Positions 1 to 6,435 of a stretch of 6,435 bases of DNA are shown here, one piece after another. The position numbers were made by a program, and so were the translations under genes. Each line of letters starts with the position of its first letter. The stretch's first letter is position 1. The notes under the pieces were generated by a model. It was not told where the DNA came from, ran no database searches, and was given only the letters and a program-made list of their open reading frames with translations. The DNA lies in IMG/VR virus record IMGVR_UViG_2778260995_000006. One strand, 5' to 3'. This DNA comes from a virus (lineage: Duplodnaviria > Heunggongvirae > Uroviricota > Caudoviricetes).

Positions 1-2294
1 CGTAACCCGGCTGTAGTCTGGCCTCCAATACGGATAATTGCGGTGTTCTGAATACAGGACCATGTGGTTTTTGTTTCTCTGGATATATGCCCGTTACTTA
101 CTGAGCACGTAGACTGCTCTGACTTTACACGCATCCCCATAACCATTTTTTCAAGCGATGCGTTTTCGTTTACCCGTCTGTTAGCTCCTCCAATATCGCA
201 ATAAGGAAATCCGTCGTAATCTGTTGAACGACCGAAGCCAAGAATAATAGCCGCTCCGGTTTGATGACCGCCGGTATCAAAAACACGTGGCGCTGCATTT
301 GGCGTTTTATACCAGTTCTTATGTACCTCACAAAGAACCGTAAAAGGAAGATTATAAAGATTATTCTTAATTGGAACTGTAACTATATCGCTTGCGCGGG
401 TCGCCGCCGTCGCTCCTGATATAATAAAAGATGATACACAAGGCCCATCTTCTACTTGTGGGGTGGCCAGATAAATATAGTCACCAGATACGGTTGCCCC
501 GCTCTGCTTAGGAGAATACTGTATCTGAGAGCCTATTTTTAACTCCCCATCAATTGCCTGAATTGTTGCCTCTGCAAAAATCCATCCGGTAGCTTCGTCC
601 TTTCTGACTCTCGCTGTAATTCTTGAGGCAGCACCGCCTGTCATATTAATTTCAAGCGTTTGTGTATCAATATACGCATCACCAAGAAAAGTTGTTGCGC
701 TACCGTCATATTTATCAAACCGGATACGCAACCTTACCTGCAGTTCTGTTTTAAAACGACATGAGGTTGTCACGTGTTTATTATCGCCTGAGACATCAAC
801 TGACTTTGTTGCAGCAATTGATGCCATATTAATGGCTGAGGTTTGCCCAATCAGAGAATCGTTGCAGACAAACTTTCCATAGGTAAAACCAAAATTATCC
901 GTCCCGGTTTCGGGCACATCCATATTTGACGATCGCCCCCAACTGGCAGGGCTTTCCGAATTGAGCATGTAGTTTGTTCTTTGCCCCTCAATAAGCAGGC
1001 CATCACGTTCAAATCGTGGCTCGTCAATGGCAGCCTCTGTCAGCACACCAGATTTGTTAATATAGGTTGCTTTCGATGCACGTTTAAACTTAACAATCTT
1101 GTCGCCAGGCATCGTTATTTCATCGTCACCAATAACAATTTTTTTATATGACGGCGAAAAGCCCGTAATCATATCCAGTGAATCGTTAAACGGTATCCAC
1201 ACATCAGGCAGTGGCTGTAAGACATATTTATACGGCTCTGCTGCCTGACTTGCATACTCTCTGGCTGCGTCTTCACTTGCTTTAGCTGCTGTCTGGCTTG
1301 CTGCCGATGCTTTCGCCGAGTTCGCCGCTGCAGTCTCGCTTGTCTTTGCATTGGTTTCACTGGTTTTTGCCGCTTTTTGACTGTTGGCTGATGCAGTGGC
1401 AGAAGCAGCCGCCGCGCTTGCAGAACCAGCTGCCGCGCTCTCGCTTTGGGCTGCTGCAACCTGGCTGTTTTTCGCCGCAGTTTCGCTGGCTTTGGCATTC
1501 GTTTCGCTGGTCTTCGCTGCCGTCTGGCTGGACTTTGCGTTAGTTTCACTCGTCTTCGCTGCTTTCTGGCTGTTAGCCGCAGCAGTTGCTGCTCCAGCTG
1601 CTGAAGTCGCAGAACCGGCTGCTGCGCTCTCGCTCTCAGCTGCTGCAGTCTGGCTGTTTTTCGCCGCAGTTTCACTGGCTTTGGCATTCGTTTCGCTGGC
1701 CTTCGCTGCCGTCTGGCTGGACTTTGCGTTGGTTTCGCTCGTCTTTGCTGCTGTCTCGCTATTTTTCGCGTTGGTTTCTGATTTTTTAGCTGCTGTCGCG
1801 GAATTTGCCGATGCAGTCTGCGAGGCCGCTGCCGCCTGTGCGCTGTTAGCTGCATTCGTTTCTGAGTTTTTCGCCGCGTTCTTCGATGATGCCGCTGCAG
1901 TTTCGGATTTCTTTGCCGCCGCTGCGCTCTGAGAGGCGGCTTCAGCGTTGCGTGCCGCTTCTTCCACCATTACCTCAAAACGACGCAATGCCTCCGGCAT
2001 GGCATCCTCTTCCGTCATGGCACCGAGAAAATCATTCAGCGTGCCTGGTCTGGAACCTTCATAGACGGTAATGGTCCCGGCATGTGAAGGCGGAAAACCT
2101 TCAACCAGCAGGGTGACGCTGTACTGGCCATACTCAACATCCATGCTGTAACGCCCGGCTTCATCCGGATTTTCAGAGGCCACCGTATTCACCAGTACCG
2201 TGGTGCTGTTACGCTTTGCTTTGAGCTGAATAGTGCAGTTCTGTATTGGTTTTCCTGCACCGTCTTTCAGCACGCCTGAAATCTGTACTGCCAT
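1..2294 (-). CDS. stf: Side tail fibre protein (Stf-like), partial: start codon at 2294, C-terminus beyond the window's left edge
   Basis: Hand translation of the minus strand from ATG 2292-2294 gives MAVQISGVLKDGAGKPIQNCTIQLKAKRNSTTVLVNTVASENPDEAGRYSMDVEYGQYSVTLLVEGFPPSHAGTITVYEGSRPGTLNDFLGAMTEEDAMPEALRRFEVMVEEAARNAEAASQ..., which I recognise as closely matching the N-terminus of lambda Stf (from memory). GGAG Shine-Dalgarno at 2300-2303 (minus strand), 5 nt before the ATG. I scanned every in-frame codon from 2294 to 3 and found no stop (764 codons), which is why the supplied track (apparently requiring an in-window stop) does not list it. Ala/Ser/Thr-rich SETNAK repeats follow, then a Cys-containing distal region ending ...WSCIQNTAIIRIGGQTTAGL at the window edge. 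Confidence 0.85.
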   Translation of the reverse strand, partial: MAVQISGVLKDGAGKPIQNCTIQLKAKRNSTTVLVNTVASENPDEAGRYSMDVEYGQYSVTLLVEGFPPSHAGTITVYEGSRPGTLNDFLGAMTEEDAMPEALRRFEVMVEEAARNAEAASQSAAAAKKSETAAASSKNAAKNSETNAANSAQAAAASQTASANSATAAKKSETNAKNSETAAKTSETNAKSSQTAAKASETNAKASETAAKNSQTAAAESESAAAGSATSAAGAATAAANSQKAAKTSETNAKSSQTAAKTSETNAKASETAAKNSQVAAAQSESAAAGSASAAAASATASANSQKAAKTSETNAKTSETAAANSAKASAASQTAAKASEDAAREYASQAAEPYKYVLQPLPDVWIPFNDSLDMITGFSPSYKKIVIGDDEITMPGDKIVKFKRASKATYINKSGVLTEAAIDEPRFERDGLLIEGQRTNYMLNSESPASWGRSSNMDVPETGTDNFGFTYGKFVCNDSLIGQTSAINMASIAATKSVDVSGDNKHVTTSCRFKTELQVRLRIRFDKYDGSATTFLGDAYIDTQTLEINMTGGAASRITARVRKDEATGWIFAEATIQAIDGELKIGSQIQYSPKQSGATVSGDYIYLATPQVEDGPCVSSFIISGATAATRASDIVTVPIKNNLYNLPFTVLCEVHKNWYKTPNAAPRVFDTGGHQTGAAIILGFGRSTDYDGFPYCDIGGANRRVNENASLEKMVMGMRVKSEQSTCSVSNGHISRETKTTWSCIQNTAIIRIGGQTTAGL
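1270..1810 (-). repeat. In-frame tandem repeat inside stf: two near-identical 189-bp (63-aa) units at 1365-1553 and 1554-1742, flanked by degenerate partial copies
   Basis: Direct sequence comparison: gcagaacc at 1420-1427 recurs at 1609-1616, and tggctgtttttcgccgcag at 1462 recurs at 1651, both offset by 189 bp. Encoded units are TSETNAKSSQTAAKASETNAKASETAAKNSQTAAAESESAAAGSATSAAGAATAAANSQKAAK and TSETNAKSSQTAAKTSETNAKASETAAKNSQVAAAQSESAAAGSASAAAASATASANSQKAAK, followed by a partial third copy TSETNAKTSETAAANSAK.... Flanking AAKKSETNAKNSETAAK is degenerate. Confidence 0.9.
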
Positions 2295-2305: not shown

Positions 2306-2333
2306 AAATAAAAAAGGCGCCATTTCTGGCGCC
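2306..2333 (-). terminator. Intrinsic-terminator-like hairpin between J and stf: 7-bp GC-rich stem, 4-nt loop, then a U6 tract on the minus-strand transcript
   Basis: Plus strand 2316-2322 ggcgcca and 2327-2333 tggcgcc are perfect reverse complements around loop tttc (2323-2326). Plus-strand aaaaaa at 2310-2315 gives UUUUUU immediately 3' of the stem on the minus-strand RNA. It lies 20 bp downstream of the J stop (2353-2355) and just upstream of the stf Shine-Dalgarno. Confidence 0.55.
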
Positions 2334-2352
2334 CGTATTTGGGTTATAAAAC

Positions 2353-5300
2353 TCAACTGATACTGATACCGGCTGTTGATTTCTTCATCACGACAACAAG
2401 AAGGTCGCTGATACTGGTCGTTGGCGTCCAGTTATTAGCACCATATGAAGAAACATTGAAAGTCAGGGTGACATGACCGTGTCCGGCAGGCATATCAATG
2501 ACGGATGAAAATACCCTGCTGACATCCGTCGCGGGTTGCTGAAAGATTTCCTGTCCGTTCTTCAGCACCTGCAGCTTACAGGTTGAATACCAGTATGACT
2601 GTTGGTTATTGCTGTTGAAGTTTTCATGCTTACCACCGTGAAACAGAACGGGTGGGATTACTATCTGACGGTCAAAAGCCTGGTCATCGTACACAGTGAC
2701 CGTAATTGTACCGCTGGCATAACTGCCATTTCTCGGAAAGGCTTTTCCCACCGTTTTGACAATATCACCTTCAATCTGGTTGGCAGACAGTTTTCCCAGA
2801 ATCCGACAGTTCTGGTTAATCGTGACATTATTGAGCGTCCCGGAGTTCGCATTCACGTTACCGCTGATATCGGCATTTTTCGCCGTCAGCCGCCCGTCCG
2901 GTGTCAGGGAAAATACCGGCGGATTGCCGCCACTGGTAATGGTGGGAGCCGTCAGATACTTCAGGAACACTTCGTTCATGAATATCTGGTTACCCTGCGC
3001 CACAAACATCGGAGTTTCATTCCCGTTTGCCGGGTCAATAAACGCGATACGGTTAGCGGCAACCAGGAACTGGCTCAGTTTACCTTCCTCCGTATCCTCC
3101 ATACTAAGGCCAAGCCCCGCGACATAATGCCTGCCGTCTTCGGTCTGCTCAATTTTGACGCCCCACATGGCATTCCATTTATCGTTGGCGTCCTTCCACT
3201 CTTTCGAAAACTCCTCCAGTTTGCTGGCGTTATCCTCCGTCAGCTCGACTTTTTCCAGCAGCTCCTTGCCGAGATGGGATTCGGTTATCTGGCCTTTGAA
3301 AAAATCCAGGTAACCTTCCGCATCATCGCTCGCCCGACCGACAGCCTCCACGAATGTCGATTTGCCGACGGTGTTCACACTGCGAACGTAAAAATAATAA
3401 TCATGGCCCGGTTTGATATTGATACTGGCGGCTATCCAGTACAGCGCCGTGCCAAGATAACGCGCGCTGGTTTCAACCTGCCTGATATCCGCAATCCGAT
3501 TTTCCGAGAACCAGAACTCAAACTGTACCGTCGGATCATAAACCGCAAGATGCGGCGTGGCGGTTATCTGAAAATAGCCCGGCGTCAGCTCAATCCGCGA
3601 CGGCGCTGCCGGTGCGGCAATCAGGAACGATACCGATGCCGGATCGCCCTGCTGCCCCCACGCATTTACTGCCCGGACTGTCAGCCTGTAGTTCCCTGGC
3701 GCCAGTTGTGTGAAGCGGTATGTGGTTTCCGCCGTCCGGGCTGTGCTGACCACCCGCTCACTGCCGTCATCCGCTGCCACGGTCAGGCGAAGCATGAAAC
3801 TCACGCCCTTCACCACCTTCGGCGTGTCCCAGCGGGCCAGTACCTGATACTCCCCGCTGTCTGCAGTGACTTCGGCGGTCAGGTGCTGCACTGCTGGCGG
3901 CGTGACACCATTCACCGTGCCGCTCTGGTCACCGTCAAAGTGCGCCCCGTTATCCACGATGGCTTCTTTCTCCGGTACATGCTGCACGGCAGTGATGGCA
4001 TACGTACCGTCATCGTTCTCACGGATACTCACGCAGCGGAACAGGCGCTGGCGCAGCGTCGGCAGCTTCAGCCCCCACACGCTGTATTCAGCAACACCGT
4101 CAGGAACACGGCTCACTTTTACCTTCACGCCGTCGGTGACGGACTGAACCTCCACGCTGACCGGATTGCCACTTCCGTCAACCAGGCTTATCAGCGTGGT
4201 ACCGGAGGATGGCAGCGTGATTTCACGGTCGAGCGTCAGCGTCCGGGTCTGGCTGTTCACCGCCAGCACGCGCCCGCCGATGCTGATACCGGCATAGTCA
4301 TCATCACAGATTTCAATGACATCGCCCGGTACATGGCGAAGCCCTTCGGCCCCCACGCTGAAATCCACGGTCTGCGTTTCCAGCAGTTCCGTTTTAATCA
4401 GCCACAGCCCGGCGCGGTGTGCCTGCCCCCGGCTGGTACAGCCAAAGGCATCCATCTTCGTGACGTTACGACCGTAACGGGCAATGGCCTGCGTGTCCTC
4501 CACAAGCTCTGTCGCCGTCTCCCAGCCGTTATTCGGGTCAATCCAGTTCACCTCAACGGCATTATGGCGGTCCTTCAGGGCGCTGAAGCTGTAGCGGAAC
4601 GGCGCGCCATCATCCGGCATCACCACATTACTGCGGTTATAGGTCCACACCTTATCCGATGGCCGGTCCTGCACGAACGTCAGCGTCTGCCCGTTCCATA
4701 CCGGCATACAGCGCATCGCCGAGCAGAAATCGCTGAGCACATCCCACGCCTTGCGCTGTGTGGTCAGCCAGGCATTACAGGTGATGCGCGGCTCCGTGCT
4801 GCCAAAGCCGTCCGGCACCGACTGGTCGCAGTAGTGGCCGATAACATACAGCGCCCATTTATCCACATCTGCCGCACCAAGACGTTTCCCCATGCCGTAG
4901 CGCGGGTGGGTCAGCATATCCCACAGACACCAGGCCATGTTGTTGCTGTATGCCGGTTTAAACGTTCCGTCCCAGATACCGCTGTATTGCCGCGTCTGCG
5001 GGTTATAATTCGACGGCACCTGCAGAATACGCCCGCGCAGATGATAATTACGGCTCACCTGCTGGCTGCCGAACTGCTCCGAGTCCACCTGCACGCCGAC
5101 CAGTGCCGTGTTCGGGTAGCACTGTTTCACATCGATGATTTCGGTGTATGACGACCAGAGCGTTTTGTTCTGCAGCTGGTCTGTGGTGCTGTCCGGCGTC
5201 ATCCTGCGCATCCGGATATTAAACGGGCGCGGCGGCAGGTTATCCACCACCACTGAGGCCAGATACTGCGACGTGGTTTTGCCCTTAATGGTGATGTCTT

Positions 5301-5751
5301 TTTCTGTCACCCAGCCACCGTTACGTTGTATCTGAACCAGCAGGCGGACTTCCGACGGATTCCTGTCCCCCTTTGAGGTGGTTTCCACCAGTGCCTGCAC
5401 ACCGAAGGTAAAGCGCAGACGGTCGATGTTTGCAGACGTGATGGTCCGGGTAATCGGCGTGTCGTACTTCACTTCCGTACCCAGCACCGTCTCGGAGCCG
5501 GAGGATTCAAATCCCTCCGGCGGTGTCTGCTCCTGCTCACCTGCCCGGAAAACCACCGTGACACCGGAGATATTGGTATTCCCCTCACTGTCCAGCACTG
5601 GCGTACTGTTCAGCAGCACACTTTTTAATCCGTCCACCGGACCTTCAATCGGCCCTTCGCTGATGGCGTCTATCACGCTCAGCATCTGCGTGGACTTCAG
5701 GTTGTCCTTCGCTTCGCGCGGGGTATGCCCCTTACTGCTGCCTTTACCCAT
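2353..5751 (-). CDS. J: Tail tip / host-specificity protein J (central tail fibre), complete, 1132 aa
   Basis: Supplied ORF of 1132 aa starting [54 protein letters not shown]..., which I recognise as near-identical to lambda gpJ over most of its length and of the same length (from memory). ATG at 5749-5751 is the first start after an in-frame stop at 5755-5757; GGAG and GAGGA Shine-Dalgarno motifs lie upstream on the minus strand. The last ~158 aa (about 2353-2830) appear divergent from lambda J. Confidence 0.95.
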
Positions 5752-5811: not shown

Positions 5812-6435
5812 TCAACGACCAATCACCACAACCTGACCACCGTCCCCCTCGTCTGCCGTGCTGATCTCCTGAGAAACCACCCGCGACCCCACGCGCATTT
5901 CACCGTACAGAACAGGCAGAACATTGCCCTGGGCAACCATGTTATCCAGTGAGGAGAAATAGGTGTTCTGCTTACCGTTATCCGTTGTCTGTGTACGGGG
6001 AGTTCTGGCTTTCGGTGCCAGCATCTGCGCCACACCACCAAGTACCATACTGGCACCGAGAGAAAACAGAATGCCGGTCATACCACCGGCCCCAATGGCT
6101 GTCCCCCATGCTGCAAGGGTGGCTCCGGCGGTAAAGAATGATCCGGCAATGGCGGCTGCCCCCAGGACAATCTGGAATACGCCACCTGACTTGGCCCCGG
6201 CGGCTCTGGGAACGATATGAATCACAGCGCCGTCAGGCAGAGCCTCATGTAACTGCGCCGTTAATCCGGACGTGCTGACATCCTGCCCGGCAATACGTAC
6301 CTGATACCAGCCGTCGCTCAGTTTCTGACGAAACGAAGGGAGCTGTGTGGCCAGCGCCCGGATGGCTTCAGCCCCCGTTTTCACACGAAGGTCGATGCGG
6401 CGGCCAAATCGTTGTAAATCCCCGTAAAGGCAGAT
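5812..6435 (-). CDS. I: Tail assembly protein I, partial: N-terminal residues beyond the window's right edge, stop at 5812-5814
   Basis: The supplied ORF 5812..6384 (VKTGAEAIRALATQLPSFRQKLSDGWYQVRIAGQDV...GGQVVVIGR) begins at an internal GTG. Hand translation of 6385-6435 on the minus strand continues in frame without stops as ICLYGDLQRFGRRIDLR, matching my recollection of the lambda gpI N-terminal region. A Gly/Ala-rich hydrophobic stretch (GAAAIAGSFFTAGATLAAWGTAIGAGGMTGILFSLGASMVLGGVAQ) is present. Gene order I then J on the same strand matches lambda. Confidence 0.9.
   Translation of the reverse strand: MCLYGDLQRFGRRIDLRVKTGAEAIRALATQLPSFRQKLSDGWYQVRIAGQDVSTSGLTAQLHEALPDGAVIHIVPRAAGAKSGGVFQIVLGAAAIAGSFFTAGATLAAWGTAIGAGGMTGILFSLGASMVLGGVAQMLAPKARTPRTQTTDNGKQNTYFSSLDNMVAQGNVLPVLYGEMRVGSRVVSQEISTADEGDGGQVVVIGR

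Follow-up and report, generated by a model that had tools for sequence, protein, structure and literature searches.

We analyzed a 6,435-nucleotide stretch of phage DNA (IMG/VR record IMGVR_UViG_2778260995_000006, Caudoviricetes), hereafter the window, whose left part encodes nearly all of a side tail fiber (Stf)-like protein of the lambda type. As modelled, the distal module of this protein has a conserved junction that leads into two concanavalin-A-like sandwiches, the first resembling carbohydrate-binding module (CBM) families 4/9 and the second resembling LamG/pentraxin domains. Our overall account, which we hold with moderate confidence on the strength of homology and modelling, is that the module serves as a lectin-like, non-enzymatic, polysaccharide-binding tip on a probably branched side tail fiber. 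The module itself is already known: it is a catalogued, annotated, and very common lectin-type tip of side tail fibers, with no new enzyme or fold. The only thread that is mildly novel is an uncharacterized small partner protein and the conserved docking peptide of a downstream fiber, both of which are encoded beyond the window in its relatives.

Fold and homology of the distal module

The Stf-like open reading frame (ORF) begins with an ATG at position 2294 (MAVQISGVLKDG...) on the minus strand and leaves the left edge of the window at base 3, with 764 amino acids (aa) inside the window. A prophage adjoining zinT in E. coli WP8-S18-ESBL-07 matched all 6435 bases of the window, colinear and gap-free, at 97.8% identity. 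The Stf-like protein of that prophage is 790 aa long, and the window is without the final 26 aa only (RHLFGHVRNFRIWHKALTDAQVGESI). The first-pass annotation, made from the letters alone, had described the distal domain as truncated by the window, which is true of the sequence as given, but the loss is minimal.

By its anchor the protein is a lambda-type Stf. It contains the PF08400 'Prophage tail fibre N-terminal' domain and is encoded downstream of J, and its aa 1–343, which include an Ala-rich shaft, aligned to lambda orf401 with 55% identity (BLASTP, E 1e-74). These are the features shared with lambda (Ur-lambda) Stf, whereas the tip is unrelated. We compared aa 353–764 by BLASTP to lambda orf401, orf314, Tfa, and all three frames of the lambda stf region and found no alignment better than E 0.36, and no tip of the lambda orf314 type. 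The distal part had a GC content of 44.1% (37.6% at third codon positions, GC3) compared to 57.0% in the repeats, 52.5% in the N-terminal domain, and 56.2% in J. Because of this compositional break and a tip unrelated to that of lambda, the sequence supports the distal part as a horizontally swapped module. The first-pass annotation had anticipated much of this. The peptides it quoted were all present, its extent for the region (1..1230) was essentially right compared to ours (3..1238), and its description of a part unrelated to lambda Stf, richer in AT than the rest, and horizontally exchanged agreed with our results.

The distal part belongs to PHROG 1419 ('tail protein', E 2.5e-216), and throughout the HMMER cluster set described below the module made up the C-terminal ~430 aa of the relatives. 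Junction columns conserved at ≥60% read P.PDVW.P..DSL and F.R.S.ATYI.K.G.L..A...EPRFE, with some positions nearly invariant. Among relatives the framing strands of both sandwiches were conserved and the cores were variable.

The window's own translation passed the NCBIfam model NF048003 ('phage head spike fiber domain', GTA_spike_fiber) over aa 434–634 with 50.6 bits (E 3.1e-13; the curated cut-off is 36 bits), and the orthologue from phage 2G7b scored 50.3 bits. As a single sequence against PDB sequences, the module matched Rcc01080, the head spike fiber of the Rhodobacter capsulatus gene transfer agent (GTA), at E 1.1e-7. A family profile built from 83 relatives matched domain 1 to Rcc01080 (E 1.9e-39), Pseudomonas phage Pa193 gp46 (E 1.8e-19), E217 gp45 (E about 2e-19), and Shigella phage Sf11 Dit gp17 (E 7.5e-14). 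For the C-terminal half, which closes with a strand-helix (...GHVRNFRIWHKALTDAQ), the same profile matched S-layer protein 4qvs (E 6.4e-07), the CBM40 of NanA (E 6.7e-05), C-reactive protein (E 0.00032), and botulinum toxin Hc (E about 0.001). Pfam assigned Laminin_G_3 to 42/83 of the relatives and CBM_4_9 to 6/83. The AlphaFold2 model of the near-identical protein P0021 was all-beta (pLDDT 90.7, pTM 0.87), with two beta-sandwich jelly rolls in tandem as in the concanavalin-A-like lectin/LamG fold, and Foldseek searches with this model returned laminin and neurexin, at their tandem LG pairs, and the porcine adenovirus fiber, at its tandem-galectin tip. In porcine adenovirus 4 (PDB 2wsu) the fiber is a trimer in which each chain terminates in lectin domains arranged in tandem, and we use it as an analogy only. 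The lectin-like receptor-binding domain suggested in the first-pass annotation is supported as the best reading of this predicted fold and homology.

Rcc01080 (GhsB) has been shown experimentally to bind Rhodobacter capsular polysaccharide (PMC7296036, PMC10218006). It carries a homologous domain 1 with the framing strands F.R.S.ATY...PRFE..GLLIE..TN and Q.E...SS.I...TRA.D, its residues 45 onward align to the F.R.S.ATY...PRFE part of the junction, and it is a flexible, distal, two-lobed, beta-rich unit. The rest of the protein differs. Rcc01080 is a 325-aa monomer with an N-terminal I-A-(L-G)n peptide that is plugged into a capsid pentamer, while the domain in the window ends a 790-aa tail fiber with a lambda Stf anchor and a putative coiled-coil shaft, at an identity of about 25%. 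With its PF08400 N-terminus and a gene located after J in the tail module, the window protein is not of the RcGTA type as a whole and has only the domain in common with it.

A glycan-degrading or glycan-modifying domain had been the other suggestion of the first-pass annotation. Such a module would be an enzyme of the ConA clan, for instance a GH16/GH7-type hydrolase, a polysaccharide lyase, or an esterase. Enzymes did appear among the matches, but the matched parts were their non-catalytic lectin/CBM domains (AbnA domain 4, sialidase CBM40), and the strong structural and profile matches were all to non-catalytic lectin, CBM, LamG, or pentraxin domains. A motif scan of the module found no ExDxxE, GDS, HxH, or Cys motifs, and the window's Stf translation matched no Pfam or NCBIfam enzyme family. 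The invariant residues R, G, E, N (PRFE..GLLIEG..TN), Q.E, S, and R (TRA.D) sit in the framing strands, and the authors of the BASEL work regard such fibers as non-enzymatic (PMC11990801). We rejected a ConA-clan glycoside hydrolase or lyase (e.g., GH16) on the lack of catalytic motifs, enzyme families, and catalytic structural matches, and we consider any enzymatic role for the module exceedingly improbable.

The cysteines do not change this picture. The distal part contains exactly seven (aa 477, 512, 619, 655, 699, 730, and 747), as the first-pass annotation had counted with its "at least seven", though at 1.6% of residues we do not regard them as unusual. Their positions were kept among relatives with ≥74% identity, but occupancy at those columns was only 1–21% across 50%-identity clusters. 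We rejected the cysteines as a disulfide or catalytic signature on the basis of this occupancy.

Distribution of the module and the genes that follow it

The module region matched 1754/5426 complete E. coli genomes at the DNA level, and in 508 of these genomes the match spanned ≥80% of the region, while 117 records reached ≥99% identity. Matching E. coli proteins were annotated as 'prophage tail fiber N-terminal domain-containing protein' or 'phage head spike fiber domain-containing protein'. Using tblastn we found the module in 218 phage records, including lambdoid phages (2G7b, HannyBb, Tritos, PhiR63_1, and mEp460-like), Drexlerviridae (T1-like; tunus and tinuso), Queuovirinae (VogelGryff and KurtStettler), Dhillonvirus and rV5-like phages, and T5-like phages (IrisVonRoten and AKFV33). 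When representatives of 50%-identity clusters were scanned exhaustively with HMMER, 1733 clusters matched at E ≤1e-3. The anchors ahead of the module varied (lambda Stf-N, P2 gpH-N, or T7 gp17-N), and P2-like prophages also carried the module. These numbers, with the NF048003 and PHROG 1419 assignments and an orthologue from IrisVonRoten already in print, contradict the novelty that the first-pass annotation had proposed: the region is essentially an ordinary and widely annotated domain whose fold is known and which lacks a catalytic signature, though it is not of the StfR type.

Several unannotated records labelled 'Campylobacter phage C11-C15' (MG065692.1, MG065652.1, MG065635.1, and MG065654.1) contained the module at 44–80% identity, and their genomes were of the size expected for coliphage groups. 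The module also matched four records that carry Listeria phage labels. The Campylobacter and Listeria host labels of these records look doubtful.

The published orthologue is Gp22 (bas32_0022) of IrisVonRoten (Bas32), which Humolli et al. 2025 (PMC11990801) described as having a protruding 'galectin-like domain' that is a possible additional receptor-binding domain (RBD). They modelled Gp22 with AlphaFold-Multimer as a proximal fiber to which a T-shaped distal fiber is attached. BLASTP on the C-terminal parts identified the same module with 62% identity over 445 aa, although full-length BLASTP missed it because of the repeats. IrisVonRoten also has SETNAK-type shaft repeats, a 92-aa gene downstream (38% identity to that of the window's relatives), and a distal fiber with the same N-terminal motif. 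The two systems differ in the anchor, which is of the T5 pb1/LtfA type in Gp22 rather than lambda Stf, and in the distal fiber, a 574-aa T-shaped dual-RBD protein in IrisVonRoten compared to a 346-aa fiber in the window's relatives. Published accounts of Hf4s, KanT1, and DT57C contained nothing specific on this module.

We examined the genes 3' of the module in relatives, using 80 loci from viral contigs (relatives with ≥76% identity only) and 16 loci from a genome-contig scan with a narrow peptide pattern, the latter indicating presence only and being too few for statistics. A 92–93-aa acidic protein was encoded directly 3' of the module gene in every relative locus with enough downstream sequence, and this included the viral-contig loci wherever the downstream sequence sufficed. 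The module gene overlapped the start of the small protein by TAATG or ATGA, and in the near-identical prophages the two are translationally coupled. The small protein has a pI of about 4.1, belongs to PHROG 1361, and had no Pfam match and no informative fold match. It was 38–53% identical across lambdoid, Seuratvirus, T1-like, T5-like, and P2-like contexts, with more diverged forms in Leclercia, Silvania, Atlantibacter, Buttiauxella, and Aeromonas. A protein search with its alignment placed the family at ~1008 clusters, all 'hypothetical', with only close E. coli relatives among the matches listed. A tfa-like chaperone gene, for which the first-pass annotation had suggested looking, was not the next gene: no tfa (Caudo_TAP) lay directly downstream in colinear or related loci, where the ~92-aa acidic protein was found instead, and truncated tfa remnants occurred further on. 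The absence of an adjacent intact tfa, together with the 93-aa protein and the second fiber of the relatives and the lack of a lom gene upstream, sets this arrangement apart from lambda Stf and Tfa.

The third gene was usually a second fiber. Its N-terminus, MAT(S/V)T(V/N)IPxDIxxLK, was kept on otherwise unrelated bodies, most of which ended in an S74-type intramolecular chaperone. The body was 346 aa with an S74 end in the near-identical prophages, 574 aa and T-shaped in IrisVonRoten, and 234 aa, 340 aa (with a gpH/StfR-like end), or 583 aa elsewhere, and the type of third gene was shuffled independently of the module subtype. From its sequence, the conserved N-terminal peptide looks like the docking peptide of a branched fiber, and beyond the end of the window the colinear relatives encode a downstream fiber of this kind, in which the N-terminal peptide is kept and the body varies. 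In DT57C, the primary fiber LtfA carries a second receptor-binding fiber, LtfB, which we cite as an analogy only.

This arrangement raises the alternative that the module is mainly a structural docking platform, which with its ~92-aa adaptor holds the distal fiber as the real receptor-binding protein and itself binds no receptor. In favor of a platform, the three-gene cassette is kept across lambdoid, Seuratvirus, Drexlerviridae, and T5-like phages, and the peptide of the third gene is kept while its body is exchanged independently of the module subtype. Among solved homologues, the best match, Pa193 gp46, uses a loop to bind a trimeric fiber, and the BASEL authors' model attaches the T-shaped fiber to the module-bearing Gp22 (PMC11990801). 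However, the second fiber is optional. It was missing in P2-like prophages, where gpH-N and the module were followed only by 92-aa and 97-aa genes, in an 86%-identity class of loci with the module and the 92-aa protein, and likewise in Buttiauxella and Atlantibacter, where the contexts are Mu-like or other. Hence the module can form the end of a fiber, and it is the only fiber tip in the P2-like tails, so a genuine receptor-binding role is favored over a purely structural joint. The GTA homologue Rcc01080 binds capsule by itself, and the variable sandwich cores fit a ligand-binding surface better than a fixed joint. Docking and receptor binding are also not mutually exclusive. We consider a module that acts mainly as a platform unlikely.

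The next gene of the cassette encodes a ~97–99-aa predicted membrane protein of PHROG 1443 (unknown function), which was 81% identical between lambdoid and P2-like contexts. Superinfection exclusion and receptor masking are possible functions for it.

Other features of the window

All genes of the window lie on the minus strand in the order I-J-stf (Table 1). The 58-bp spacer between J and stf (2295–2352) contains no lom gene, unlike lambda. It does contain a strong terminator-like hairpin (GGGCGCC-AGAA-ATGGCGCCT and a T-run) immediately before the start of stf, a sign that read-through into stf may be attenuated. Over its last ~300 codons (2356–3255), J had a GC content of 49.7% and GC3 of 58%, compared to 56.2% and 67.5% for the whole gene. 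This composition suggests that the receptor-binding end of J may also be a mosaic replacement. In an otherwise near-identical E. coli GN25 prophage, a deletion fuses J and stf (fused region L001:2607-6379), both of which are annotated as partial pseudogenes, and the lectin-type tip and the downstream cassette are intact despite the fusion.

The shaft contains a 189-bp (63-aa) tandem repeat at 1420–1760 with 42-bp and 21-bp sub-repeats (also at 1471–1572 and 1660–1778). By analogy with DT57C LtfA (PMC10713586), we infer that it forms a trimeric coiled coil. Relatives with an identical tip had Stf lengths of 774 to 791 aa, possibly from differences in repeat copy number. Long ORFs cross the shaft repeats in other frames or on the opposite strand (1169–1855, minus; 1384–1932, plus; 1298–1543, plus), including one of 228 aa that is Arg/Gln-rich and one of 182 aa that is Ala-rich. 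Most likely these ORFs merely reflect the repeat composition and are not genes.

Table 1. Positions of the features in the window and of the downstream genes in related loci.
Feature	Coordinates	Strand	Residues	Basis or remark
I-like gene	6384..5812	minus		ORF list
J-like central tail fiber gene, directly upstream of stf	2353..5751	minus	1132 aa	ORF list; colinear prophage annotation gpJ
Terminator-like GC-rich hairpin and T-run, J-stf spacer	2315..2334	minus		Consensus scan: 8-pair stem, 6 GC pairs, then TTTTTATTTG
Lambda Stf-type N-terminal virion-attachment domain	1902..2294	minus	aa 1-131	Pfam PF08400 phage_tail_N, E 2.7e-66
Ala/Ser/Thr-rich repeat shaft, SETNAK-type repeats	1239..1940	minus	aa 119-352	Within the 55%-identity lambda Stf stretch
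Distal module of the Stf-like protein	3..1238	minus	aa 353-764 of 790	Junction/neck, then two predicted beta-sandwich domains
Junction and first strands	996..1238	minus	aa 353-433	EPYKYVLQPLPDVWIPFNDSL...FKRASKATYINKSG...EP; most conserved stretch of the family
Predicted beta-sandwich domain 1, 'phage/GTA head spike fiber' domain, CBM4/9-like	393..995	minus	aa 434-634	NF048003
Predicted beta-sandwich domain 2, LamG/pentraxin-type concanavalin-A-like lectin fold	3..377	minus	aa ~640-764	Continues to 790 outside the window
Third gene, related loci	L105:7670-8710; L002:6670-7707; L004:5556-6722; L005:5583-6320; L106:6590-8314			
Membrane-protein gene, related loci	L105:8753-9046; L002:7747-8046; L086:6070-6363			

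Proposed mode of action and implications

We propose that the lambda tip, with its Tfa-dependent assembly, has been replaced on a lambda-type side tail fiber by a portable ~430-aa module. By homology, the PF08400 N-terminal domain anchors the fiber to the tail tip. The Ala-rich repeats would make up the shaft, and each chain would end in its own two-lobed lectin-like head. The fold and the precedent of Rcc01080 suggest that these heads bind a surface polysaccharide (O-antigen, capsule, enterobacterial common antigen, or lipopolysaccharide core) reversibly and without cleavage, and such binding would constitute primary adsorption before J engages the terminal receptor. The second, short fiber probably docks near the border of shaft and module to form a branched appendage, which agrees with the published IrisVonRoten model, and the 93-aa protein may be a dedicated assembly factor or adaptor in the place of Tfa.

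The ligand of the heads could instead be a protein receptor such as a porin, comparable to the OmpC proposed for the Ur-lambda Stf. Sandwiches of the LamG/pentraxin and botulinum neurotoxin Hc types include protein binders, and OmpC has been linked to lambda-type side fibers (PMC11990801). However, the sole homologue with experimental data, Rcc01080, binds a polysaccharide capsule, the relatives at the sequence level are CBM40, CBM4/9, and Laminin_G_3, and the side fibers of Ur-lambda deal with O-antigen (PMC11990801). We regard a protein receptor as very unlikely.

Several observations weigh against a polysaccharide-binding tip. For coliphages, glycan binding by the module is suggested only by the fold and by one distant homologue at ~25% identity. 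LamG-type domains bind proteins as well as glycans, and no Pfam lectin model was reached by the window sequence itself. Coordinates have been solved for only two of the homologous domains, Pa193 gp46 and E217 gp45 (PDB 9b45 and 8env), and these are not fiber tips or receptor binders but structural parts of the myophage baseplate wedge, in a triplex that holds fibers, and the homologous Dit appendage of Sf11 has no known function. Rcc01080 is modelled in the PDB for residues 2–10 only, with its body drawn from predictions and binding experiments. We nevertheless favor the lectin-like tip for the reasons given above.

More tentatively, and as a possibility that we would not call probable, the module and the coupled ~92-aa protein may together represent a portable, Tfa-independent tip cassette for anchors of the lambda, T1, T5, Seuratvirus, and P2 types. 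The small protein would then belong to an undescribed class of fiber-tip assembly factors or adaptors, which in many phages would also let an exchangeable second fiber dock via its conserved peptide, as a general branching socket.

The modest residual interest of this region is in the receptor of a very widespread module, the ~92-aa protein that constantly accompanies it, and the docking peptide conserved in the downstream fiber. With these understood, the host range of E. coli prophages and therapeutic siphophages would be easier to predict and to engineer.

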